DNA from: Candidatus Bathyarchaeota archaeon
Lineage (GTDB): Archaea; Thermoproteota; Bathyarchaeia; Bathyarchaeales; Bathycorpusculaceae
Reading direction: 5' to 3'
NCBI GenBank assembly: GCA_963777155.1
Contig: CAVZPM010000039.1
Coordinates: forward strand, 96,001 to 160,000
Length of the DNA: 64,000 nucleotides
Position numbers and translations under genes: made by a program. Shown one piece after another: positions 1,821-32,777 of the stretch; positions within the stretch are counted from its first letter, which is position 1, and each line of letters starts with the position of its first letter. Under the pieces are notes generated by a model. The model saw only the letters and a list, made by a program, of their open reading frames with translations. It searched no databases and was not told the origin of the DNA.

Positions 1821-1985
1821 AGACCATTTTATTATTCGCCTAACCTTTGCCAACCTTAAAAATCTCTTAGAAATCAACTTTTAAGATTGGCTTCAAAAAG
1901 CTTAGGAATCAATAGACATATAGAAAATCATCTCCAATTTGCAGGTGAAAAGTCCTAATAAAGCATAAGAGCTCCGTTTCCGCTG

Positions 1986-1998
1986 GAAAGGTTTATCT
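1986..1998 (+). promoter_or_regulatory. BRE/TATA of the eL15 operon
   Basis: GAAAGG-TTTATCT about 30 nt upstream of a structured leader. Confidence 0.5.
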
Positions 1999-2029
1999 CA
2001 TTCAAGGGCACTATGATGTGAAATTGCAG

Positions 2030-2074
2030 GCGGACAACCGTGTCCGTTGGGATGTGGTCCTTCGGGACTGAACC
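2030..2074 (+). ncRNA. Structured 5' leader of rpl15e (candidate ribosomal-protein leader)
   Basis: Hairpin GCGGACA-ACCG-TGTCCGT, then GGGATGTG-GTCC-TTCG-GGAC-TGAACC (UUCG tetraloop plus internal loop). Confidence 0.55.
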
Positions 2075-2107
2075 GTAAGCAAACAATACAGATAGGATGA
2101 AAAACAT

Positions 2108-2717
2108 ATGGCATACAAATACATAGCCGAAGAATGGGCTCAGCCCGAAAAAAGCTTCGTTGAAGAACTCATGCGTCAACGCTTAGTGCAGTGGCGCAAA
2201 CAACCAACCGTATTACGCATCGAGCACCCTACAAGACTCGACCGCGCAAGAAAACTAGGCTACAAAGCCAAACAAGGCTTCGTAGTTGCCCGAGCAAAAG
2301 TCCGAAGAGGCAATTTAAGAAAATTGCGTCCCCGGTCAGGACGCACGACCCAAACGTATGGGTGTCGCCAAATTTAAACCAGGAAAAAGCATCCGATTAA
2401 TCGCAGAGGAACGAACCGCCAAAAAATTCCCCAACCTCGAAGTTCTAAACAGCTACTGGGTTGGCGAAGACGGCAAACACAAATGGTTCGAAGTCATCCT
2501 CCTTGACCCTAATGCACCAACCATAAAAACTGACAAAGACGTCAGTTGGATAACAGAACCACAGCACACTAGCAGAGTCTTCCGCAGCATGACCAGTGCA
2601 GGCAAAAACGTCCGAGGTCTCCATCACCGCGGCAGAGGCACAGAAAAACTGCGCCCAAGCCACAAGTTTGGCAATACAGGACGCCACGGCGACAAACAGC
2701 AAAAAGGAGGCAAATAG
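2108..2717 (+). CDS. rpl15e: 50S ribosomal protein eL15 (one apparent +1 indel near 2345)
   Basis: [21 protein letters not shown] and [22 protein letters not shown] lie in two frames; removing one base restores SGRRPKRMG. Confidence 0.95.
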
Positions 2718-2718
2718 A

Positions 2719-2922
2719 ATGCATCACATTAAAGCAGTCATAACCAAACAAAACGGCAAAAAAGCCACCAGCCAAAAAGGCTTCAGCCCAAACGAACTCA
2801 AAGAAGCAGGGATAAACAAGGAGCAAGCCCAGAAGCTTGGGATAAGAGTCGACGTTAAACGCAAATCGACCCACCAAGCCAACGTGGACTGCATAAAAGC
2901 CCACGCTAAACCAAAAAGCTAA
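2719..2922 (+). CDS. rpl13e: 50S ribosomal protein eL13
   Basis: KGFSPNELKEAGI...LGIRVDVKRKSTHQANV; GGAGG RBS upstream. Confidence 0.85.
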   Translation: MHHIKAVITKQNGKKATSQKGFSPNELKEAGINKEQAQKLGIRVDVKRKSTHQANVDCIKAHAKPKS

Positions 2923-2954
2923 AAGCAACCACAGCCAACACAAATCGGTGCCTA

Positions 2955-3401
2955 ATGTCAGCTAAACCGCCAATAGCCTACATAGAAATACGAGTCTTCG
3001 CACACGCAACCGAAGACCCAGACAAAGTCCAAACTGCTATCCGCAACCTATTTCCGATGGAGTTGGCGGAAACCCTTGTTTTCGAAAAAGCAAGTTGCAC
3101 AGGGCATCATGGGAACTCAATTATCCTTTTTACTGCCAAACTATGTGACAAAAAGCTGCTCCCAGCAGCCATCGAAAAAATTGGGTCAAGTCTAAGTGCA
3201 ATCGATAAGGAGGAGCTTAGCCGCGAATTCAAACTGCACTTGGAAAAGGGCAACTTGTATTTACGTTTTGATAAGCAATCCGCTTTTTTGGGCTCAACAA
3301 AGTTTACGCAAAATGACCCGATTCACCTAAAAATCCACTTCAAAAATAAAACTTCGCAGGAAATTTTGGATTTTTCAAAGCAAACTGGGTTGCTGATATG
3401 A
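2955..3401 (+). CDS. Archaeal RNA-binding protein (DUF54-type, exosome/RNase P superoperon)
   Basis: HATEDPDKV, GHHGN, LYLRFDKQ motifs; operon context. Confidence 0.88.
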   Translation: MSAKPPIAYIEIRVFAHATEDPDKVQTAIRNLFPMELAETLVFEKASCTGHHGNSIILFTAKLCDKKLLPAAIEKIGSSLSAIDKEELSREFKLHLEKGNLYLRFDKQSAFLGSTKFTQNDPIHLKIHFKNKTSQEILDFSKQTGLLI

Positions 3402-4132
3402 CCCGAACTTTCGCGGATCTGCATTTACGTATAAATCCCAAAGACCAGCAAACCGCTCAACGGTTAATCACCAAGGCGGCAAGGTTTGGCTACCGCTATA
3501 TCAGTATTCCATTCAACTCTTCACCCCAACAAGCTGAAGTTGACGCCCTAAAAGCCATGTGCACAAACGCAGGATTAGATTTTGTTTTACGTGCAGACTT
3601 TAAACCCCAAAGCCAAGAAGACCTAATGCGTTTTCTACGCAAATTCAGAAGACAATTCGAAATAATATGTATCGCATGTGACAGCAAAGAAATCGCTAGG
3701 CAAGCCGCCAAGGACAGACGGGTTGATTTGCTCAGTTTTCCAAGTCTAGATTACCGTAAACGGTTTTTTGACCGCGCTGAAGCCGAACTAGCAAGCTGTA
3801 GTTTGGCAGCTTTGGAAGTTGACATAAAATCTCTACTCGTTATGGAAGGGCCAGCACGGGTTAGGTTGCTTTCAAGTTTGCGCCGCGAGGTTGCGGTTGC
3901 GCTGGAGTTTCATGTACCTGTTGTGGTTTCAAGTGGCGTTGGCGAGGAGTCTTTGTTGCGTATGCCGCGGGATTTGGCAAGTTTGGCTTATCTGTTTGGG
4001 TTAGGTGAGGAGCAGGCTTTGGAAACGGTTTCTTCTAATCCAGTAGGGATTGTTCTGCGCAACCGAGAGAAACTGAGTTCACGTTTTGTTGCTCCTGGCA
4101 TAAGAGTTGTTAAGGAGGGCAAATCCAGTTGA
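3398..4132 (+). CDS. rnp3: Ribonuclease P protein component 3 (Rpp30)
   Basis: PHP-like FADLHL, RVDLLS, VVVSSG...LRMPRDL; upstream of Pop5. Confidence 0.9.
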   Translation: MTRTFADLHLRINPKDQQTAQRLITKAARFGYRYISIPFNSSPQQAEVDALKAMCTNAGLDFVLRADFKPQSQEDLMRFLRKFRRQFEIICIACDSKEIARQAAKDRRVDLLSFPSLDYRKRFFDRAEAELASCSLAALEVDIKSLLVMEGPARVRLLSSLRREVAVALEFHVPVVVSSGVGEESLLRMPRDLASLAYLFGLGEEQALETVSSNPVGIVLRNREKLSSRFVAPGIRVVKEGKSS

Positions 4133-4443
4133 AACGTGTTAAACGCCGTTACCTTGCTCTGCAACTGGAGTGCGAAGTTTTGCCTAGTGAACGGGATTTT
4201 ATGGATGCGGTTTGGTCTGCCGTCACCAAGTTGTATGGTGAGGTTGGGGCAAGTTTGACGGGGATGGCGTTAATTAATTTTGATGGGGAACGAAAAATTT
4301 TTGTGGTTCGTGTATCCCTTGCGTCTTTGCTTATGGTGAGAGCTTCGTTGGCTACTGTAACTAGTGTCGCTGGTAGGTGTGCGTCGGTGCATGTTTTAGC
4401 TGTTTCAGGTACGCTTAAAGCACTGTTCTCCAATATTTGCTAG
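4129..4443 (+). CDS. rnp2: Ribonuclease P protein component 2 (Pop5/Rpp14)
   Basis: KRRYL, LYGEVG, VSGTLK motifs. Confidence 0.9.
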   Translation: MKRVKRRYLALQLECEVLPSERDFMDAVWSAVTKLYGEVGASLTGMALINFDGERKIFVVRVSLASLLMVRASLATVTSVAGRCASVHVLAVSGTLKALFSNIC

Positions 4444-4620
4444 TTAGAATGTAAACTTTTTGTTTATCTAATGACAAGTAATTTTATTTTAAAGTCACGT
4501 ATGCCACTTGACAAATTTACAAAAAGTATGCAGAAACGTTTATCAATTACATTTAAGCGTTAGTTAGCATTACAAAACATACGTCTGAAGAATAAAAAAA
4601 TAGACAGAGTAGAACAATAA

Positions 4621-5850
4621 ATGGACATAAAAGACTTCTATTTCAAATTAAAACCCCTAAAAACGGACCCAATCATAGATGACACTACACTTCGCGACGG
4701 CATCCAAATGCCAGGCTTAGCAATAGGACCAAAAGACTCAGCAAAAATCGCACAGCTATTAGGCGAAATAGGAGCCGAAAGAATAGAATTATTCCATTAT
4801 CAAGAACCTGACAAAAAAGCAGCCAAACTAATCGGCAACTTAAACCTTGATTTGCGAGTTGCAGGCTGGTGCCGCGCTGTAAAAGAAGACATTGACAGCG
4901 CTGTAGCATGTGGACTCAAAGAAGTCGGTATTTCTCATCCTGTATCCGACATACATTTCTTGGCTAAATGGCCAGAAAAAACCCAAGAACAAATCTTGGC
5001 TAACGTCGTTGACGTAACTGAATACGCAGCTAAAACTTGCGGGTTAAGAACCTTTGTTCATGGCGAAGATAGCACACGTGCAGACTGGAACTTCGAGAAA
5101 CGCTTCATCAATGCAGTTGCAGATGCAGGTGCAGAATGTTACCGTATATGCGACACAGTCGGTATTGGGTTGTCGGATCCAGAAGCTCCATTGCCTCATG
5201 GCATTCCAGCCAAAGTGGTTGCGATCAAGAAAGAAACTCGTATAGGCGCTATAGAGATTCATGCGCATGACGATTTTGGTAACGCTGTTGAGAACACGAT
5301 GGCTGCGATTAAAGCTGCTTCAGGGGTTTGGGACAAAGTCTACGCTAGCACAACCTACCTTGGCATTGGGGAACGTGCAGGCAACGCCGAGACAGAAAAA
5401 GTCCTCCTAAACCTCTACCTTCACTATGGAGTGAAGAAGTATGCGGGTAAAACCGAGAAACTCAAGGCAACCGCAGACTACATCGGTAAAGCCACAGGCT
5501 ACATTGTGCCGCCTAACAAGGCAATAGTTGGCGACTACGGGTTCGCACATGAATCAGGCATCCACACCCATGGCGTCCTCAATGATCCATGGACCTATGA
5601 GCCTTATCCACCTGAACTGGTCGGCAACACAAGACGTTTAACCATAGGCAAACAATCAGGCAAAGGCATGATTAAACACAAAATCACTGAGCTATTAGGA
5701 AATGCTCCAGACGACCAAACAGTTGCTGCAGTCGTGGATACAGTCAAAGACATGTACGCCAACGGACGCAGGGCATCGCTTAAAGAGGAAGAATTCAAGA
5801 AAATCCTTCGCGTACTAAGAATCCTGCCAGAAAACAACAACTGCCACTAA
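4621..5850 (+). CDS. DRE-TIM acyltransferase (homocitrate/isopropylmalate/Re-citrate synthase family, no regulatory domain)
   Basis: DTTLRDG, HAHDDFG, GIGERAGN, AHESGIH, YEPYPPELVG. Confidence 0.88.
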   Translation: MDIKDFYFKLKPLKTDPIIDDTTLRDGIQMPGLAIGPKDSAKIAQLLGEIGAERIELFHYQEPDKKAAKLIGNLNLDLRVAGWCRAVKEDIDSAVACGLKEVGISHPVSDIHFLAKWPEKTQEQILANVVDVTEYAAKTCGLRTFVHGEDSTRADWNFEKRFINAVADAGAECYRICDTVGIGLSDPEAPLPHGIPAKVVAIKKETRIGAIEIHAHDDFGNAVENTMAAIKAASGVWDKVYASTTYLGIGERAGNAETEKVLLNLYLHYGVKKYAGKTEKLKATADYIGKATGYIVPPNKAIVGDYGFAHESGIHTHGVLNDPWTYEPYPPELVGNTRRLTIGKQSGKGMIKHKITELLGNAPDDQTVAAVVDTVKDMYANGRRASLKEEEFKKILRVLRILPENNNCH

Positions 5851-6941: not shown

Positions 6942-8226
6942 AGGCTTCACAACAATACTTGTCAAAGAGCTAAAAGAGCTCATGCGCGACCCAAAAATCC
7001 TAGTCGGCATGATAGTGTTGCCATTGATTATGTTTCCGGTTCTGGGTTTAGTTATGGGTTTTGCGGTTCAGTCAGCGCAGGAGGAAGCTCAAAGGGCAAC
7101 CTTGCTTGTGGTTAACAATGACAATAACGGGACATGGAGTAATGCGCTTGTAACTTTCTTGAACAGTACTATGAACGTAGAAGTTGTCAGGGATCTTTCG
7201 CCACAGAACATCGTGGACCAGGGATTGCTTGGAAAATATAATAGTACTATGTTTCTGGAGATTCCTTCTGGGTTTAGCACTAACTTAACTATGCATGCCG
7301 ACGGCGCAAGAAATATTACGGGAATGGTTAATGTTTACGGCGTTTTCAACGGCGGAGGAGGAATTTTCAGCGGCATCGGCGGAACAACGGTCACTGCAGT
7401 TGTTGCGGGTTTTAACCGAGCAGTTGCTCCCGATGTAGTTGCGGTTTCCCAATCAAGCATTATTAAGGGTCAAATCGAGCAGGGCGTTGATGCCAGCACG
7501 CTTTCGAGTTTGATGCTGTCGCAGTCGATTGCTTTGCCAATCACAATTATGATTATGTTGACTTATGCGATGCAGATTGCTGCTACCAGCGTTGCGATGG
7601 AGAAAGAAGAGAAAACCTTGGAGACGCTGCTTACTACTCCTGTGGACAGGTTCGCAATTTTGATGGGTAAAGTCTCAAGCACTATAATTGTTGCTGGGGC
7701 TGCTTCGATAGCGGTTTTGGTTGGCTACAACTACATGATTGGCTCTATATCAAATGGTATTGCTGGAAATGTAGGTGGCAGTGTTGATTTGGTTGCTCTT
7801 GGTTTAGTACCTTCCTTTGGCGGATACGTCTTGTTGGGTATAAGCCTGTTTTTCACATTACTGTCGGCTTTAGCGTTAGCCGTCATTATGTCTGCGTTTA
7901 GCGAAAATGTCCGAGGTGCACAAGCGTTAGTCGGTTACATTTACCCGTTGATTTTCATACCTTCCTTAGCTCTGGTCTACTTAGATATGAATTCGCTGCC
8001 CCTTGCAATAAAAGCAATCTTCTATGCAATTCCATACAGCCACCCAATTATCGCTTCAAAAGCCGTAGTCACAGGCGATTATGGAACAGTTGTGTTTGGG
8101 ATTGTTTACGTTGCAATCTTCACAGTCGTAATAATGTACATTGCATCAAGGTTGTTTGCAACGGAGAAAATCTTGACGGCAAAGCTCAGGTTTGGCAGGG
8201 GCAAAACAAAGCAACATAGCGAATAG
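6934..8226 (+). CDS. ABC-2 exporter permease (NatB-like)
   Basis: KELKELMRD N-terminus, EKEEKTLETLLTTPV motif, multiple TM helices. Confidence 0.9.
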   Translation: MLKGFTTILVKELKELMRDPKILVGMIVLPLIMFPVLGLVMGFAVQSAQEEAQRATLLVVNNDNNGTWSNALVTFLNSTMNVEVVRDLSPQNIVDQGLLGKYNSTMFLEIPSGFSTNLTMHADGARNITGMVNVYGVFNGGGGIFSGIGGTTVTAVVAGFNRAVAPDVVAVSQSSIIKGQIEQGVDASTLSSLMLSQSIALPITIMIMLTYAMQIAATSVAMEKEEKTLETLLTTPVDRFAILMGKVSSTIIVAGAASIAVLVGYNYMIGSISNGIAGNVGGSVDLVALGLVPSFGGYVLLGISLFFTLLSALALAVIMSAFSENVRGAQALVGYIYPLIFIPSLALVYLDMNSLPLAIKAIFYAIPYSHPIIASKAVVTGDYGTVVFGIVYVAIFTVVIMYIASRLFATEKILTAKLRFGRGKTKQHSE

Positions 8227-8370
8227 ACATCTCCTTTTTTTCCTTCGCACCTTTGAGAAATAATAGTTTGTTTGATAAAACAACAACACCTTTTTTTCCA
8301 GAATCCACGTGTTTTTGTTCTTCCAGTAATCGGATTTTAGAAGGAATGTCGAATGCAGGTTTTTCTTCTA

Positions 8371-8595
8371 CTATTCCTCACGGAGCTTATCAATTTCTTT
8401 TTTCAGTTCCGCCACATCTGCATGCCCAGCAAAAATACCTGCGTAATCTTCTAATCTAGGAATGGGCTTAAAGATAACCTGTTGATCCCTTGTCTCGACG
8501 GCTAATTTATCGCCCTCTTTAATGCCGAGTTGTTTTCGGATTTGGACGGGGATGGTTGTTTGCCCTTTTCTCGTAACTTTAACTATTTTTTGCAA
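8371..8595 (-). CDS. AbrB/MazE/SpoVT family DNA-binding protein (VapB-like antitoxin)
   Basis: KVTRKGQTTIPVQIRKQLGIKEGD. Confidence 0.88.
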   Translation of the reverse strand: MQKIVKVTRKGQTTIPVQIRKQLGIKEGDKLAVETRDQQVIFKPIPRLEDYAGIFAGHADVAELKKEIDKLREE

Positions 8596-25162: not shown

Positions 25163-25861
25163 TTAGAGGTGTTGTGCTACTATCATGGCGTGTGCTTTGT
25201 CGTAGGGTTCCAAATCGACGATTTCTTTAACGTCGAAACCCCTGTTTCTTAGGATGTTGGCTTCTTGGCGATAGACTGCGTTGGGGTCCATGGTTACGTC
25301 GATGCTTTGGGATTTGCAGGCTAGCATTACCCAGCCTTGGGATTTGAGGAAGACATCAGCGTTGTCCGCCAGCAATTTGGCCTGTTCAGGTTGTGCTACG
25401 TCGCAGTAGATTGTGTCTACTTTTCCTGAGATGAACATGGCATAGCGTTCGGGCATCCGCGCATCTTCCAACATTGGAGAGATGTTGGTTCGGTAAGCAG
25501 CAACGTTATTGACAAGGTCCCGAAGTGAGCGCTGCGCGAATTCAATGCAGTAAACATGTCCGCTGTCGCCTACGATGTCTGAGACGTGGCTGGGAGTGGT
25601 TCCCGAAGCAGCACCCAAATACAACACCTTAAAACCAGGCTCAATAGGAACGTTTTGCACGCCTTTAATGATGCCTCCAGCAAGTTTGCTACGGAAAGCG
25701 TCCCAAACACGGTATTCAACGTATTTGAATTTGAAAAGCCGTTCACCATAAACCCTTAAACCAGGGGTTAAGTTTTTTGTAGCGAGACGTTGTGCGCCGT
25801 CTTCAAGCATTACTTGGTAGATCTCTTTGAATTTTGGGTGCGGTTTAACTTTGAGGTGCAC
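25163..25861 (-). CDS. flpA: Fibrillarin-like rRNA/tRNA 2'-O-methyltransferase
   Basis: VYGE, YRVWDAFRSKL, VLYLGAASGTT.SHVSD, DVAQPEQA, LEPYDKAH. Confidence 0.97.
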   Translation of the reverse strand: MHLKVKPHPKFKEIYQVMLEDGAQRLATKNLTPGLRVYGERLFKFKYVEYRVWDAFRSKLAGGIIKGVQNVPIEPGFKVLYLGAASGTTPSHVSDIVGDSGHVYCIEFAQRSLRDLVNNVAAYRTNISPMLEDARMPERYAMFISGKVDTIYCDVAQPEQAKLLADNADVFLKSQGWVMLACKSQSIDVTMDPNAVYRQEANILRNRGFDVKEIVDLEPYDKAHAMIVAQHL

Positions 25862-27269
25862 GCCTGTCTGGTCCCCGGTTTTGACCGCCACCGCTACTGC
25901 CCCCGCGTCGCTCGCCTCTATCTCGCCCGCCGCCGTAACCAAAATTGCGGCCTCCACCTCCGCCGCCACCGTTTCGTGGTGGTCTTGGACCTCGATCCCC
26001 GCCGCCAAAGTTTTTACCGCCACCTCTGAATCCTCCTCGATCGTCTCTCCGTGGAGGTCGTTGTTCTCGGCGTTCAAATGACCCTTCAGGTCTCGGTTTA
26101 GCTTCTTTTGGTGCTGGCGGTTCCTTGTATTTTTCATGGATTTCTTCTATGCGTTTGTTAATGTCCGCTTTTAATTTGTCTCCGATGTAGTGTCCTCCTC
26201 CGAAGGCGTCTGCTCTGGCTGCGATGGCTAGTTTGCCTGCGATGACTCTAGCGATTTTTCCTCGTTGCCACCTTTTCGCGTCATGGAGCAGGGTGTGCTG
26301 GAAGATTAAGCCGTGTTTTGGTGGTCGGGCTCCTGTTTTTAGGCTACGGAAGAGAGCTTTTTCTGCGCCTATGACTTGGATGGTGCTTGCTGGTCTCATA
26401 GCCAGATTCTGTAAGCTTCCAGCCATAGCGATTAAACGTGCACCCAGAAGGGCACCTGCAACTGAGCGGACGTTAGGTGCCAGTTCCTCCATGGTGTGGT
26501 CAACGTAGTCTTCCATGTTCTTGCGTAACAAATAGAAATCAAGTACGTCCTTAGCTAAGGCTTGTATCATCTCAAGGTCGGCTTCTGCAATGTCTGCGCC
26601 CATGGATGATTCAGCTGCTTTGGCAACAAGTTCGCTTCGTTCTTTCGGAATATTCTCTTTTTCCAGATTGTCAACGGTAAAGTCTTCCCTATCACCCAAG
26701 TTCAAAACAAGCCGTGAATAAGTTTCATGTTTCTCAACTAAGCGGTCAAGTTCAGGGAAGTACACGCCATACCATTCACGGAGTCTACCCATGAATAGGT
26801 TAACGGTTTGGTCTAAACTATCGAGCGTTTGAATGCCTTGAGCAACAATTAGATCGCGCTTTCCAGAGGCACCTTTAATCCTTAGCTTAGCAAGTTCCAA
26901 GCTGACATTGCGATTCCACGTGTTTAGTTCTTGTTCGTCTTGGGCAAAACCTGTTTCGATTGCAACCTCTCCCATACGGGAATGCAACACTGCGGTTTCT
27001 GCTGGCTTGGCAACTTCGACTGCGATTTTCAGCTTCTTTTGAGCTTCCTCTGCCAATTTGGCGGATTCAAAAGCAAACGTGTCATAACCAACGCTTGCTA
27101 AAAGTGTGATTAGTGAAGAGACTTGGTCGGATATTTTTCCCGATTCGGTTCTAAGCAGGCTCTTTGCTGCCGCCTGCGCCTTTTTTGGAAACAATGCTTT
27201 TTCTACTAAGCCGTTATTTTCGTCAAAGGCTGCTACGCCGAAGGGAAATTGAACTATGAATAGTTTCAT
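25845..27269 (-). CDS. nop5: C/D box sRNP protein Nop5 (Nop56/58) with RGG-rich C-terminal tail
   Basis: RLREWYG..FPEL, PASTIQVIGAEKALF, PPKHGLIF, RGKIAR. Confidence 0.96.
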   Translation of the reverse strand: MKLFIVQFPFGVAAFDENNGLVEKALFPKKAQAAAKSLLRTESGKISDQVSSLITLLASVGYDTFAFESAKLAEEAQKKLKIAVEVAKPAETAVLHSRMGEVAIETGFAQDEQELNTWNRNVSLELAKLRIKGASGKRDLIVAQGIQTLDSLDQTVNLFMGRLREWYGVYFPELDRLVEKHETYSRLVLNLGDREDFTVDNLEKENIPKERSELVAKAAESSMGADIAEADLEMIQALAKDVLDFYLLRKNMEDYVDHTMEELAPNVRSVAGALLGARLIAMAGSLQNLAMRPASTIQVIGAEKALFRSLKTGARPPKHGLIFQHTLLHDAKRWQRGKIARVIAGKLAIAARADAFGGGHYIGDKLKADINKRIEEIHEKYKEPPAPKEAKPRPEGSFERREQRPPRRDDRGGFRGGGKNFGGGDRGPRPPRNGGGGGGGRNFGYGGGRDRGERRGGSSGGGQNRGPDRRAPQS

Positions 27270-27563: not shown

Positions 27564-28493
27564 ATGGGCAAACACATACCCGCTCAGAAAACAAAACAAA
27601 AAGCAGCTGAAGCCAAAAATAAAACAGTTACAATTGGGCTTATCCAAACCGTCGTTTCAGAAAACATAGCGGAAAACATGAAAAAAACTGCTGAAAAAAT
27701 TGAACAAGCCGCTAAATTGGGTGCCCAAATCGTGTGCCTCCAAGAACTCTACCGCACAACGTACTTTCCACAGCTGGAAAATCAGGATACAAAGGGCTTA
27801 GCTGAAACCATTCCCGGCAAATCTACAGAGATATTTTCTGGGTTAGCGAAAAAGCATGGAATAGTTATCGTTGCGCCCTTGTTTGAGAAAAGCAGAGAAG
27901 GAAAATTTTACAACACGGCAGTGGTGATTAACTGCGACGGCGAAATAATGGGCACCTACCGGAAAGCCCACATACCTTACGACCCCTACTTCTATGAGAA
28001 AAACTACTTTGAAGCAGGCGACACAGACTATCAGGTTTTTGATACAAGTTATGCTCGAATTGGGGTGCTCATCTGTTATGACCAATGGTTCCCCGAAGCA
28101 GCCCGCATCAATGCTTTGCGAGGTGCAGAAATCATCTTTTATCCAACCGCAATCGGTTACGTTAAAGGCTACACCTCCGCAGATGGAGACTGGCATGACG
28201 CCTGGAAAACCGTGCAGCGTGCCCACGCCATAGCAAACGGAATCCATGTCGCCTCAGTCAACCGAGTAGGCGAGGAGGGCGAGTTGGAGTTTTGGGGTGG
28301 CTCTTTTATCTGCGATAGTTTCGGCAAAGTTGTTGCTGAAGCCAGTACTTCAAAAGAAGAAGTGTTGATTGCAACGTTGGATTTGGGTAAGAACAAGAAA
28401 ATCCAAGAAGGCTGGGGGTTTCTGCGTAATCGACGCCCCGATACATACAAGCAGCTAACCATGGGCGGCAGGAAGGGTGCAGAAGATGAGTAA
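27564..28493 (+). CDS. aguB: N-carbamoylputrescine amidase (nitrilase family)
   Basis: CLQEL, YRKAHIP...FYEKNYF, ICYDQWFPEAAR, RNRRPDTY; adjacent to agmatine deiminase. Confidence 0.88.
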   Translation: MGKHIPAQKTKQKAAEAKNKTVTIGLIQTVVSENIAENMKKTAEKIEQAAKLGAQIVCLQELYRTTYFPQLENQDTKGLAETIPGKSTEIFSGLAKKHGIVIVAPLFEKSREGKFYNTAVVINCDGEIMGTYRKAHIPYDPYFYEKNYFEAGDTDYQVFDTSYARIGVLICYDQWFPEAARINALRGAEIIFYPTAIGYVKGYTSADGDWHDAWKTVQRAHAIANGIHVASVNRVGEEGELEFWGGSFICDSFGKVVAEASTSKEEVLIATLDLGKNKKIQEGWGFLRNRRPDTYKQLTMGGRKGAEDE

Positions 28494-29535
28494 CTCCGAA
28501 AAAAGCTGCCGTGAACAGGGCTTTTGTATGCCTGCAGAATGGGAAAAACACGACGCTATCTGGCTCGCGTGGCCGTATGACCCGACAACTTTTCCGGACC
28601 GGGTGCATCGCGTTGAAGCCGTTTACGTCCAAATAATCAAAGAGATCCATGAGGGTGAACAAGTAAACCTCTTTGTCATCGATCAGCCTACTAAACAGAA
28701 AGCAACAAAGTTGTTTAAAGAAGCGAACATCGACCTAAACAAAATCCATTTCTACGTTTCCGATTATGCTGACGTCTGGTTTAGGGATTATGGCCCCATA
28801 TTTGTTAGAAACCAGAACCACGAGCTTGCAATGGTTCACTGGGATTTTAATTCTTGGGGAGAAAAATACGAAACGCTCTTAAAAGACAAGCAAATCCCTG
28901 CCGTTATAAACCAAAAAATGTCCATTAAATGCTTTAAACCTGGCATCGTTCTGGAAGGTGGCTCAATAGATGTCAACGGCAAAGGAAGCTTGCTGACCAC
29001 AGAGCAATGCCTGCTTAATAAGAATCGTAACCCGCATCTTGGCAAAAAAGACATTGAAAAATTCCTATCCGAATACTTGGGAGTAACCAATTTTATTTGG
29101 CTCAAGAACGGCATTTTGGGCGATGACACCGATGGCCACATCGACGACCTAGCCCGATTCGTCGACCCAGCTACAATCGTTTGCGCTTATCAAGACAACG
29201 AAAACGACGTAGACTACGATGCTCTAAAAGAAAACTATGACATCCTGTGCCAATCGCACGATCAAGACGGCAAAAAATTCCGTATTATCAAGTTACCCAT
29301 GCCCAAAGTCGTCAGCGACGAAGATGAACGACTGCCTGCAAGCTACACAAACTTCTACATCGGCAACCAAAAAGTTCTGGTTCCAGTTTTCGATCACAAA
29401 AACGACTCAAAAGCTCTCTCGATTTTGCAAAAGCTGTTCCCAGCCCGTAAGGTGGTCGGCATCCGATGCGTTGACTTGGTTTACGGCTTTGGCACAATCC
29501 ACTGCATTAGTCAACAACAGCCCTGCGGTGTTTAA
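28486..29535 (+). CDS. aguA: Agmatine deiminase
   Basis: MPAEWE, WFRDYGP, LEGGSI, DTDGHID, GTIHCISQQQP. Confidence 0.93.
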   Translation: MSNSEKSCREQGFCMPAEWEKHDAIWLAWPYDPTTFPDRVHRVEAVYVQIIKEIHEGEQVNLFVIDQPTKQKATKLFKEANIDLNKIHFYVSDYADVWFRDYGPIFVRNQNHELAMVHWDFNSWGEKYETLLKDKQIPAVINQKMSIKCFKPGIVLEGGSIDVNGKGSLLTTEQCLLNKNRNPHLGKKDIEKFLSEYLGVTNFIWLKNGILGDDTDGHIDDLARFVDPATIVCAYQDNENDVDYDALKENYDILCQSHDQDGKKFRIIKLPMPKVVSDEDERLPASYTNFYIGNQKVLVPVFDHKNDSKALSILQKLFPARKVVGIRCVDLVYGFGTIHCISQQQPCGV

Positions 29536-29639
29536 GAGTCAAACATAACATGGCAAAGTCCATTTTTAGTTAAGTTTAAACCCTTAACCTCCATAATAGG
29601 TAAACCCCACAGTTTGAGGAGTTCTGGAGAGAATAGGGC

Positions 29640-31856
29640 ATGGTAAATCAACCACCGATTCGTGCACGCGGCGTCAAAGTGCTAAAAGCCGTTTCGTCAC
29701 CGCTTAGGCTGCAAATTCTCAATTTACTCTTCGACAAAAGCGCCCTTAGCTATACCGAACTTATGAACCAACTCAAAATGAACCCCAGCCGAGACGCAGG
29801 CAGATTCGCCTACCACCTAAAATTCATGCTTAAAGCTGACTTGGTTGAGGCAGATGTGGAAGCAAAAAAATATTACCTCACTGACCTCGGCAAGATGGTT
29901 TTGGATGTGGCTGACCGCGTGGAGAAAAAAGCAGTCAAGCCACGTGGCATGTTGGTTCGTACGTCACATTTGACGATGGAAGAGTTTGATGTTAATAAAA
30001 TCGCAAATTCACTAATCAAAGAGGCGAAGGTTCCAGCGGAGTTGGCTCAGAAAGCCGCTAAAGAAGCCGAGAAACGCCTTATCAAATCCAAAACAAAGTA
30101 CCTGACGGCAGCCTTGATCCGGGAAGTCGTGAACGGCATTTTGGTGGAGAAGGGCTATGAGGATTACCGTCATAAGCTTACCCGAGTCGGGATGCCAATC
30201 CACGAAGTAACTTCTCTAATCGAAACTAAAGAGGGCATGCAGGACTGTCAAGCTACAATTAGCAAAGCAGGACAAGCAGTCTTAGGTGAATACACACTCC
30301 TGAATATTTTTCCAAGAGACATCGCTGACGCCCACCTGTCAGGCGCTATCCACGTCGACAACTTAGGCACCTGGGTCCTAAAACCCAACGAAGTAATCCA
30401 TGACATACGATACTTCTTTCAACACGGTGTCAAACTTGACAACCTACTTCAAGTTGCAATGGAACCGCCAACTGACCTAAAATCCGCTCTATCTATCGCC
30501 TTTAACGTGCTTTTGCACGCCAGCAAAGAAACCAATCGGACTCAAAACTTCAACTACTTCAATGTATTCCTCGCGCCTTATATCAGAGGCAACGAAGTGG
30601 CAAAAATTAAGGAAAACCTGCGGTTATTCATACAGAGCCTTAACCAGCACGTAGATGCAACATTAGGTCTTGAGATTGCAGTTCCCACGTTGTTGTCGGA
30701 AAAAGAAGCTGTGGGGTCGGGAGGCAAACTAAACGGTAAGTACAGCGATTTCTCCCAAGAAAGCCAACTTGTAGCCTCACTTGTCATCGATGTCTTCACA
30801 GAAGAGAGTTCAGTTAAACCTCTTCTAAGCCCCAAACTAATAATAAAAATTAACAGTTTAGCTTTGGTTGATGAAAACGCCAAAGCGATTCTGCTTAAAG
30901 CTCACCAATTAGCTGTGAAAAGCGGTGTTCTATACTTTGCCAACATGACCAAAAAAGAAACCGAAAACATAGCATTTTCATCCTCAGGGGTCAAGCTAGC
31001 TGCGGATTTGATAGGCGACTGGGAAACGGATACATTGCGAACCGGTTGTTTGGGCTGTGTAACCATAAACATGCCTAGAATTACTCAGGAATGTGAGAAA
31101 GACAAGAACAAGTTCTTCGATTTGATGCGTGAACGCTTCGAACTCGCCGCTCGTGCGCTGGGCATAAAGAACAATGCACTCAAGCAATTCGGGAAGAACT
31201 CGCTTCCATTTCTGTTGCAGAAATCAGACCGCGACACTTATTTCCGTCTTGAAAACTGTAGCCGAATCGTAAACTTGGTCGGGTTCCGAGAAGCCATCGA
31301 AGCCTTCACAGAGAAAACTGTCAACTCAGAGGAGAGCCGTAAATTCACAGAAGAAATCATAAGCAACCTGATGGCTTTTAGGCAGAAAATCGGCAGAAAA
31401 TACGGGAAACGACTTTACCCCGTTATCCTCGGCAGTCCTGAAGCCTCTGAGCGGTTGGCACAACTGGACATTGAACGGTACGGTGTTGCTAAAGTGAAGT
31501 TTTCAGGAACAAGAGACAAACCCTACTATTCAACGGTCAAACGGTTCCAGCTGAAACCCTCTGATTTTCTAGCTTTGCAGACGGATGCATTGGAGACAGC
31601 GAAGAGACTTAAGGGATTAAGCGCAGGGGGAAACCTGAGCATCATTGAACTTGAAAACGTCGAGTACAAGCCGGAGGCGCTCATGGATCTGACGGTGCGT
31701 TTGATGGAGAACTACGCACTGGAGTTCTTTACGTACAACCGCCAAATCAGTGTCTGCGATAACTGCAAGAAGAATTGGTTTGGAACATTGCATAAGTGTC
31801 CTTCGTGCGGCTCTATGAGCAACCTGACAACGTTCGACCGGTTTACTTCGATTTGA
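29640..31856 (+). CDS. ArsR-type HTH - ATP-cone - class III RNR (NrdD)-like fusion, probably catalytically inactive
   Basis: SSPLRLQIL..LSYTELM..FAYHLK HTH; VRTS..EEFDVNKIANSLIKEA ATP cone; DAHLSGAIHV, VTINMPRI, terminal CxxC-CPxCGS; ends DRFTSI rather than RxxGY. Confidence 0.85.
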   Translation: MVNQPPIRARGVKVLKAVSSPLRLQILNLLFDKSALSYTELMNQLKMNPSRDAGRFAYHLKFMLKADLVEADVEAKKYYLTDLGKMVLDVADRVEKKAVKPRGMLVRTSHLTMEEFDVNKIANSLIKEAKVPAELAQKAAKEAEKRLIKSKTKYLTAALIREVVNGILVEKGYEDYRHKLTRVGMPIHEVTSLIETKEGMQDCQATISKAGQAVLGEYTLLNIFPRDIADAHLSGAIHVDNLGTWVLKPNEVIHDIRYFFQHGVKLDNLLQVAMEPPTDLKSALSIAFNVLLHASKETNRTQNFNYFNVFLAPYIRGNEVAKIKENLRLFIQSLNQHVDATLGLEIAVPTLLSEKEAVGSGGKLNGKYSDFSQESQLVASLVIDVFTEESSVKPLLSPKLIIKINSLALVDENAKAILLKAHQLAVKSGVLYFANMTKKETENIAFSSSGVKLAADLIGDWETDTLRTGCLGCVTINMPRITQECEKDKNKFFDLMRERFELAARALGIKNNALKQFGKNSLPFLLQKSDRDTYFRLENCSRIVNLVGFREAIEAFTEKTVNSEESRKFTEEIISNLMAFRQKIGRKYGKRLYPVILGSPEASERLAQLDIERYGVAKVKFSGTRDKPYYSTVKRFQLKPSDFLALQTDALETAKRLKGLSAGGNLSIIELENVEYKPEALMDLTVRLMENYALEFFTYNRQISVCDNCKKNWFGTLHKCPSCGSMSNLTTFDRFTSI

Positions 31857-32777
<921 letters not shown>

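Follow-up and report, generated by a model that had tools for sequence, protein, structure and literature searches.

Class III ribonucleotide reductases (RNRs; NrdD) require a C-terminal glycyl-radical motif, RxxGY, together with catalytic cysteines. Regulators with enzyme-derived domains include MocR/GabR, which carry an aminotransferase-like domain, and BirA. To our knowledge the transcriptional control of RNR genes is largely unknown in most archaea. PMC9110341 and PMC12176259 describe NrdR as a nucleotide sensor, and the former places it in most bacteria and in only some archaea. Here we consider a gene at positions 29640..31856, forward strand, of a 64,000-nucleotide stretch (the window) from a Candidatus Bathyarchaeota archaeon (assembly GCA_963777155.1, contig CAVZPM010000039.1, positions 96,001 to 160,000). 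The product resembles NrdD in sequence and predicted fold, lacks the catalytic residues and begins with a winged helix-turn-helix (wHTH). Judged from sequence and structural models, and with a probability of roughly 0.6, it would be a one-component, dimeric transcription regulator built from a duplicated class III RNR.

Domain layout and loss of catalytic residues

The gene is a single uninterrupted open reading frame (ORF) of 738 amino acids (aa) that terminates with TGA at 31854-31856. It comprises the following parts.

29640..31856, forward strand: whole gene, encoding the wHTH, a cone-like domain, a dead NrdD core and a zinc ribbon (Pfam, NCBIfam, structural model, Foldseek)
29679..29906, forward strand: winged helix-turn-helix of ArsR/DUF7347 type, aa 14-89 (Pfam)
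29952..30197, forward strand: ATP-cone-like domain and linker, aa 105-186, of the type VRTS...YLTAPLIRE...YRHKLTRxGxP (Pfam, family alignment)
30249..31841, forward strand: NrdD-like ten-stranded barrel core, aa 204-734, without catalytic residues (Pfam, Foldseek)
31755..31808, forward strand: Cys4 zinc ribbon, C706, C709, C720 and C723 (64-sequence alignment)
31836..31853, forward strand: remnant of the glycyl-radical loop, D733-R-F-T-S-I738, with Ser at the Gly position, then the stop (alignment to SRVVGY/SRITGY of intact NrdDs)

A preliminary description, made from the letters of the window, had already proposed a continuous 738-aa ORF with wHTH, ATP-cone, NrdD-like barrel and zinc site, and the ORF, the Pfam matches and the invariant cysteines bear this out. 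Pfam assigns HTH_5 to aa 20-70 (27.2 bits, cut-off 22), DUF7347 to aa 14-89 (31.5 bits, cut-off 27.6), ATP-cone to aa 105-177 (28.8 bits, cut-off 25.8) and NRDD to aa 204-734 (223.2 bits, cut-off 26.2). The NCBIfam equivalog model of NrdD, TIGR02487, scores 248.8 bits, under its cut-off of 326.35; an intact neighbouring enzyme of the methanogen type ('type B') in a related genome, G040, reaches 514.3. The NrdR model TIGR00244 is not among the 13 NCBIfam families listed for the protein. The solved sequences nearest to the wHTH are HlyU, aligned over aa 8-81, and PagR, both of ArsR/SmtB type, with E values of 0.003-0.02.

An AlphaFold2 model calculated with a 64-sequence family alignment has a mean predicted local distance difference test score (pLDDT) of 89.3 and a predicted template modelling score of 0.80, with confidence dipping only at residues 1-4 and 99-102, the hinge between helix-turn-helix (HTH) and cone. 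This confident model matches class III RNR structures. The first 36 Foldseek ranks against the PDB are all such enzymes, headed by S. thermophilus NrdD (9dca_A, E 4e-26) and followed by P. copri, T. maritima and phage T4 NrdD, with class I enzymes far behind. Among these top matches 8p2s_B has template modelling scores of 0.63/0.71. The modelled fold is that of NrdD by homology, not by function.

Catalytic residues were compared in a MAFFT alignment of 119 rows, namely P0001, 93 representatives of 600-820 aa, 10 intact NrdDs translated from the genomes of relatives, and 15 proteins added later from loci with an adjacent gene pair. The representatives were drawn from 150 matches listed by an all-against-library search, which gave 1722 proteins at E <= 0.001 and 325 at E <= 1e-30. 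Sorting with a hidden Markov model of the HTH region and the motif RxxG[YFW] leaves 81 rows with the HTH and no Gly motif, none with both, 13 intact type-B and 10 intact type-A enzymes, and 15 rows with neither feature.

At the C-terminus, ...FDRFTSI, the residues R734-F-T-S737-I738 align opposite R-V-V-G-Y or R-I-T-G-Y of intact NrdDs, which agrees with the earlier placement of RFTSI at the RITGY position. None of the 81 HTH-family sequences has RxxG[YFW], against 23/23 intact NrdDs, and the motif is likewise missing from the last 60 aa in 75 of 75 related loci. The typical ending across the clade, by eye among these loci, is FDRF[TAN]ST and a stop, directly before the convergent gene pyrB. 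The segment of the loop Cys reads KPNEVIH; intact copies have YC or NC here and the T4 and S. thermophilus chains TNCC, and the residue is present in 0/81 HTH-family sequences against 23/23. For the thiyl Cys, MAFFT sets FSSSGVKL opposite SMCCRLRI or MGCRTRL of intact copies and phmmer chooses AADLI instead; there is no Cys under either alignment. A Cys occurs within the five-residue thiyl window in 9/81 HTH-family sequences, at scattered positions, compared with 23/23 intact enzymes. The by-eye reading of the two Cys-bearing segments as PNEVIHD and FSSSGV therefore holds in the alignments.

The substrate-holding elements are lost as well. Roles for the NxN substrate flap and the HxHD triphosphate motif are given in passages of PMC11226230. 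The HxHD position reads HVDN in the 738-aa protein, and the motif is present in 0/81 HTH-family sequences against 21/23 intact NrdDs, the remaining two having HIHN. The flap region carries a deletion of 4-8 residues; N.N appears by chance in 4/81, against NxN in 23/23. All 64/64 aligned family members have the zinc cysteines C706, C709, C720 and C723, and two zinc-ribbon CxxC motifs are found in 71/81 HTH-family and 13/13 type-B sequences, and by the same regular expression in 0/10 of type A. Also retained are the barrel strand NLPR, G548/E551, R605/D610, Y630 and G664.

Is the unusual C-terminus a fault of the assembly, or the gene a decaying pseudogene? Nothing beyond that C-terminus speaks for this, and the comparative data refute it, leaving a negligible chance. 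A word-indexed search returns 2484 relatives, of which the best 120 are all 75-100 % identical and 118/120 share its four Pfam domains. All 75 related loci keep the frame open. Two other metagenome runs yield contigs that span the 3' end and the pyrB junction with no indels (X1 record 5, 29789-31919; X3 record 23, 30207-32060). Since these contigs are free of indels and no related locus has the Gly motif, the stop codon is genuine and not a read error, which answers the call for an inspection of reads at the 3' end. On the alignments, then, the 738-aa protein is a pseudo-enzyme derived from a class III RNR, without any catalytic hallmark, and the loss of Gly and Cys is a trait of the family, not an error. 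The earlier notion of a pseudo-enzyme with a conserved wHTH stands.

The nucleotide-contact sites fare differently from what had been expected. PMC12662201 describes a Lys-Arg pair in the cone hairpin (K9/R10 in E. coli, K19/R20 in S. thermophilus) that contacts nucleotide phosphates, and names Cys400 and the specificity-site residues Gln225 and Glu293 of S. thermophilus NrdD. In the 738-aa protein the Lys-Arg pair is T108-S109, and VRTS is found here in 65/81 HTH-family sequences. The same hairpin occurs in 6/13 intact type-B NrdDs, type-A enzymes reading V[RL]KR; because intact enzymes share it, VRTS is a trait of a subgroup and in itself no sign of decay. The phmmer alignment pairs Gln225 with N289 and Glu293 with A347. 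When the P. copri and S. thermophilus chains are aligned by profile, the register of the specificity-site helix differs by about two residues, and E345 might be the Glu equivalent. This helix aligns ambiguously and the Gln/Glu pair may be lost, its retention not being supported by the best alignments. The preliminary description had supposed that retained allosteric nucleotide sites control the HTH; the Thr-Ser hairpin, the deleted flap, the missing HxHD and N289/A347 do not support it. A nucleotide ligand is possible, yet with the canonical contact residues not retained the sequence gives no indication of one.

The family and its gene neighbourhood

A scan of one genome per species finds at least 599 loci encoding a relative, a part of which may be HTH-only proteins as the scan pattern lies in the HTH wing. 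The best 80 of these at least 599 loci are labelled nearly all Bathyarchaeota or Bathyarchaeia. Distant representatives, of approximately 30-38 % identity, belong by cluster look-ups to Jordarchaeia/Freyarchaeota and Helarchaeota (Asgard) and to metagenome-assembled genomes labelled Nitrososphaerales/Nitrososphaerota. In JGI and NCBI records the members are almost always named 'anaerobic ribonucleoside-triphosphate reductase', some with '(formate)', others just Bathyarchaeia; one of the best 120 relatives is named 'ArsR family transcriptional regulator'. The annotation of the family as an active reductase is likely a systematic mis-annotation. Given this naming, reconstructions of metabolism in Bathyarchaeia, Asgard and Nitrososphaerota-labelled genomes may credit them with an anaerobic RNR that they do not have.

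DUF7347 is recognised in 64/64 family members, ATP-cone in 63/64, HTH_20 in 45/64 and HTH_5 in 30/64. The columns that vary little or not at all are concentrated in the HTH and the cone, with the cone-like domain and linker the best-conserved part. In the HTH, L30, H59, Y78 and G84 are invariant in the 64-sequence alignment, and G54, F56, Y58, H59 and L60, in the predicted recognition-helix region, are among the conserved columns. In the cone and linker, V106, R107, I121, L125, E128, R161, L168, R182, G184 and P186 are invariant. By this pattern of conservation the N-terminal module is under selection.

A maximum-likelihood tree calculated with the HTH columns removed groups the 81 HTH rows with two HTH-less rows, possibly truncated gene calls, in one clade with a support of 100 in the Shimodaira-Hasegawa-like approximate likelihood ratio test. 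This dead clade lies inside a 109-row clade, also with a support of 100, that holds the intact type-B enzymes; type A forms the outgroup. The cluster of the type-B representative P0183 includes NrdD of Methanococcus vannielii. As the search was quick and without bootstrap, and many rows deviate in composition, the deep branching is tentative. With that caveat the family appears to be one ancient clade, sister to or nested in the methanogen-type NrdDs. The simplest history would be a single duplication of a type-B nrdD, after which one copy was fused to a winged helix and catalysis was lost.

At least two more NrdD-like clades are without the Gly motif (P0198, P0200, P0247 and P0263; P0244, P0223, P0252, P0253, P0246 and P0267). 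The HTH-less, Gly-less rows (n=15) have the Gly motif in 0/15 and HxHD in 5/15; the thiyl Cys is missing from most and the zinc ribbon from many, and they carry an additional N-terminal cone-like stretch. These clades look like independent dead-RNR lineages.

The neighbours of the gene are the following.

31857..32777, reverse strand: pyrB-like aspartate/ornithine carbamoyltransferase, convergent, zero spacer (Pfam OTCace_N and OTCace, junction sequence)
28477..29535: agmatine-deiminase-type PAD_porph gene (aguA-like), upstream (Pfam-type match)
27564..28493: CN-hydrolase gene (aguB-like), upstream (Pfam-type match)

The Pfam calls and the junction sequence confirm that the gene abuts pyrB tail to tail and follows aguBA. 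The stops of the two convergent genes touch, TGA being directly followed by TTA (31854-31859), and in an 80-locus table the spacer to the next ORF is, by eye, mostly 0-26 nt. Because of the touching stops and the short spacers across loci, a 3' overlap between the transcripts of the dead-NrdD gene and pyrB is probable. An opposite-strand pyrB immediately follows the gene in 61 of the 75 related loci and is one of the next two ORFs in 64. The upstream gene is variable, an aguA-like gene lying directly upstream in 14/75. Further upstream in the window, an archaeal Nop5/56 homologue (25845-27269, reverse strand) has a C-terminal Gly/Arg-rich tail of approximately 90 residues with RGG-like repeats.

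Across the order, 40/41 genomes (own included) have an NRDD match, the exception being 65 % complete. Nearly all contain a high-scoring intact NrdD (approximately 480-680 bits) and a low-scoring copy (approximately 160-320 bits) of some 740-780 aa. In 8/16 genomes from the other families of the order (G025, G026, G029, G030, G031, G037, G039 and G040) an intact nrdD follows the dead copy on the same strand at a distance of 0.09-0.5 kb. The gene order in these sister families is dead copy, a glutaredoxin/NrdH-like ORF (in at least two genomes), intact type-B nrdD and convergent pyrB. The own genus and its closer relatives lack the type-B nrdD, and there the dead copy abuts pyrB. The link to nucleotide-metabolism genes suspected at the outset thus exists, as a link to RNR in sister families. 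The idea that adjacency to pyrB reflects such regulation is not borne out: since an intact nrdD stands between regulator and pyrB in the sister families, the contact is secondary, a remnant of the older order regulator, nrdD, convergent pyrB, and no evidence for pyr regulation. In the relative G004 a decayed second low-scoring NRDD copy (contig C4:3686-5274) lies approximately 2 kb from the intact copy (6975-8561); one segment of it carries four TAA and a second three stops, and it has the appearance of a recent duplicate that became a pseudogene.

These data bear on an alternative in which the protein does bind DNA, the NrdD body serves as a dimerisation scaffold only, and the regulon is unrelated to supply of deoxyribonucleoside triphosphates, for instance pyrB/pyrI pyrimidine synthesis or housekeeping. 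The loss of the nucleotide-contact motifs is in line with it, as is the prominence of convergent pyrB; no intact NrdD is found in the neighbourhood at 75/75 loci of the clade, where the gene is still kept; and G032 (91 % complete) has the dead copy and a class II RNR, with no intact NrdD found. Yet convergent genes share no promoter, the pyrB contact is secondary, and the conservation of the cone-like domain and linker, the highest in the protein, goes beyond what a scaffold needs. We regard this alternative as unlikely.

The RNR set of the own genus was surveyed in 24 genomes. An intact NrdD is present in 23/24, and no class I or II RNR core was found in 24/24. The enzyme is of type A and is encoded in an operon nrdR-nrdD-nrdG of bacterial type, in which NrdR scores 152.6 bits (TIGR00244, cut-off 124.65) and the NrdG2 that follows nrdD 185.8 bits (cut-off 131.15). 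By these profile scores this bathyarchaeal genus holds a true NrdR beside the HTH-dead-NrdD. The genes of the operon overlap stop to start (loci L036-L051, e.g. L036, oriented 1919-5438).

The own assembly is 90.6 % complete. Neither another RNR nor an activase emerged from searches of it with PF02867, PF13597 and TIGR02495 or from tblastn with a same-genus NrdD; the best radical-SAM match to NrdG scores 50.2 bits, under the cut-off of 131.15. The flank of the nrdR-nrdD-nrdG operon in G001 is syntenic with the own contig C34 up to base 89916 of 89923, so the operon of the own genome most likely sits in an assembly gap. A reading that the organism has no RNR was rejected, the synteny stopping at the end of the contig. 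The preliminary remark that no nrdG lies nearby, with its call to check for a separate RNR, was correct for the assembly and is most likely explained by the gap. On own contig C6 (L002:1201-1695, reverse strand) a stand-alone protein of 164 aa with an N-terminal ATP-cone (Pfam, 39.4 bits) adjoins a gene resembling that of transcription factor B (TFB). Its C-terminal half is unassigned and has no NCBIfam match, and it may be another cone-based sensor.

Does the 738-aa protein itself still act on nucleotides, by non-radical chemistry or with a radical supplied in trans? It retains the barrel fold, the NLPR strand and several core motifs, and the own assembly offers no other RNR. Against this, all residues known to make or carry the radical or to hold the substrate are missing throughout the 81 sequences, a contig end accounts for the missing RNR, and an intact NrdD exists beside the gene in nearly all genomes of the genus. 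An enzymatic role is very improbable.

Proposed function

We favour a putative regulator built on the NrdD framework. The NrdD body would keep an NrdD-like dimer interface, and because of this the dimer could present its two winged helices to a dyad operator. The protein would bind at its own promoter and also, in genomes that have it, at the nrdH/nrdD promoter downstream. The cone-like domain and remodelled core would relay a metabolic signal to the HTH, the signal being a nucleotide bound in a non-canonical manner or a protein partner of the RNR system.

The dimer was modelled from two copies of the core, aa 190-689. The interface score ipSAE is 0.57, compared with 0.00 for the best control; the mark is reached by 20/30 proteins solved as pairs and 1/23 solved as single chains. 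At least 88 % of contacts recur between runs, with a partner pLDDT of 85 or more. The modelled interface consists of helices 281-297 and 325-337, which correspond to the dimer helices of NrdD. As NrdD dimers have already been solved, this result may reflect likeness only and is no proof of dimerisation.

Dead paralogues often pair with active relatives, and the protein might not be a transcription factor at all. It could be a partner within the RNR system, pairing with NrdD or titrating NrdG or an NrdH-like reductant, with the winged helix making protein contacts. The dimer helices in the model and the adjacent nrdH-like and nrdD genes of the sister lineages are in keeping with such a role. 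In the own genus, though, a mixed dimer is unlikely because the sole intact NrdD is of type A and approximately 24 % identical to the dead protein (tblastn). The HTH, moreover, matches DNA-binding models of ArsR type and its predicted recognition-helix region is conserved. A pure partner role is, in our judgement, quite improbable.

For the putative regulator a candidate site lies just upstream of the gene.

29567..29602, forward strand: conserved promoter block of approximately 36 nt (by-eye alignment)

The block contains TAGTTAAGTTTAAAC (29567-29581), which resembles a transcription factor B recognition element and TATA box and includes a palindrome-like, TATA-like core GTTTAAAC, and a second conserved box, ATAATAGGTA, at 29593-29602. 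By eye it is kept approximately 70-30 nt before the ATG in 19/21 aligned upstream regions of the same genus, also where the upstream gene differs. A related form, GCTAAGGTTTAAAC...AATA[GC][GC]TA, is seen in many of 74 wider loci (by eye, uncounted). The block is thus a candidate promoter and possible autoregulatory operator, and it is unique in the own genome at 0 mismatches. A recurring ACAGAATTTTATAC...TTCTAAAAAATTAAA before nrdH/nrdD-B, seen by eye in 8 AT-rich intergenic regions with no statistical control, was not used. RNA-library contigs (X23) cover 29563-29880, 31342-31587 and 31672-31838, a weak hint of expression; such contigs cannot show a transcript start, and uncovered parts of the gene in X6 and X23 are uninformative.

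What would be controlled? The gene is kept in 40/41 genomes of the order whatever their RNR set, G032 included, which argues for targets beyond a linked nrdD. So does the own genus, which has lost the linked nrdD and whose intact nrdD has its own NrdR, yet in which the regulator is conserved at 75-100 % identity. A wider proposal makes the family the counterpart of NrdR in archaea: an ancient master regulator of the deoxyribonucleotide supply, made from a whole RNR subunit after loss of catalysis, that would read the nucleotide pool or the state of the RNR system by way of its remodelled cone and core and switch nrd and other genes with its winged helix. The family is spread over Bathyarchaeia, Asgard and Nitrososphaerota-labelled archaea. 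From sequence comparison we hold this proposal as tentative, somewhat short of an even chance.

Several observations weigh against a regulator of this kind. The NCBIfam ArsR metalloregulator model NF033788 gives 31.5 bits, under its cut-off of 55. No operator or regulon is definable, looser scans of the own genome with the block, its halves and the nrdH/nrdD-B motif giving 7-81 patternless matches. The canonical contacts of cone, specificity site and active site are not retained in the alignments, which leaves the sensing step without sequence support. Conserved synteny among relatives is not independent evidence, and in the own genus the intact nrdD is unlinked to the gene and comes with an NrdR of its own, so that the context gives no sign of RNR regulation here. 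With these reservations, a conserved HTH-RNR pseudo-enzyme beside nrdD is a concrete candidate for a regulator of archaeal RNR genes.

Comparison with known systems

In open-access titles and abstracts we found no description of an HTH-fused or catalytically dead NrdD, a scope that did not extend to supplementary lists of excluded RNR-like sequences; look-ups of these terms in PMC9669993, PMC13450708 and PMC9531940 gave none.

The closest relative is NrdD itself, in particular the methanogen type with a VRTS inner cone, with which the fold, the cone-like domain, the zinc ribbon and the predicted dimer helices are held in common. Unlike NrdD, the dead family is without the radical Gly, the thiyl and loop Cys, the NxN flap and HxHD, has an added N-terminal winged helix, and the protein falls under the NCBIfam cut-off for NrdD. 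On every functional test of the enzyme family it falls short, and it ought not to be classified as an RNR.

The bacterial RNR-operon repressor NrdR likewise joins a DNA-binding module to an RNR-derived cone and is adjacent to nrd genes in some lineages. The DNA-binding domain of NrdR is an N-terminal zinc ribbon, whereas the dead family has a wHTH, carries a whole NrdD body, has lost the Lys-Arg pair of the cone hairpin and does not match TIGR00244. The ArsR/SmtB regulators such as HlyU and PagR correspond to the N-terminal 90 residues, which match HTH_5, HTH_20 and DUF7347. Those regulators are stand-alone dimers of approximately 100 residues; here the matches are weak and the module is fused to a 640-residue body derived from an enzyme.

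With MocR/GabR and BirA the family shares a well-known principle, the fusion of an HTH to a sensor or scaffold of enzymatic origin. The enzyme ancestor in this case is a glycyl-radical RNR, and as far as our literature search shows this would be the first instance in which the body of a glycyl-radical enzyme has been reused as a regulator.

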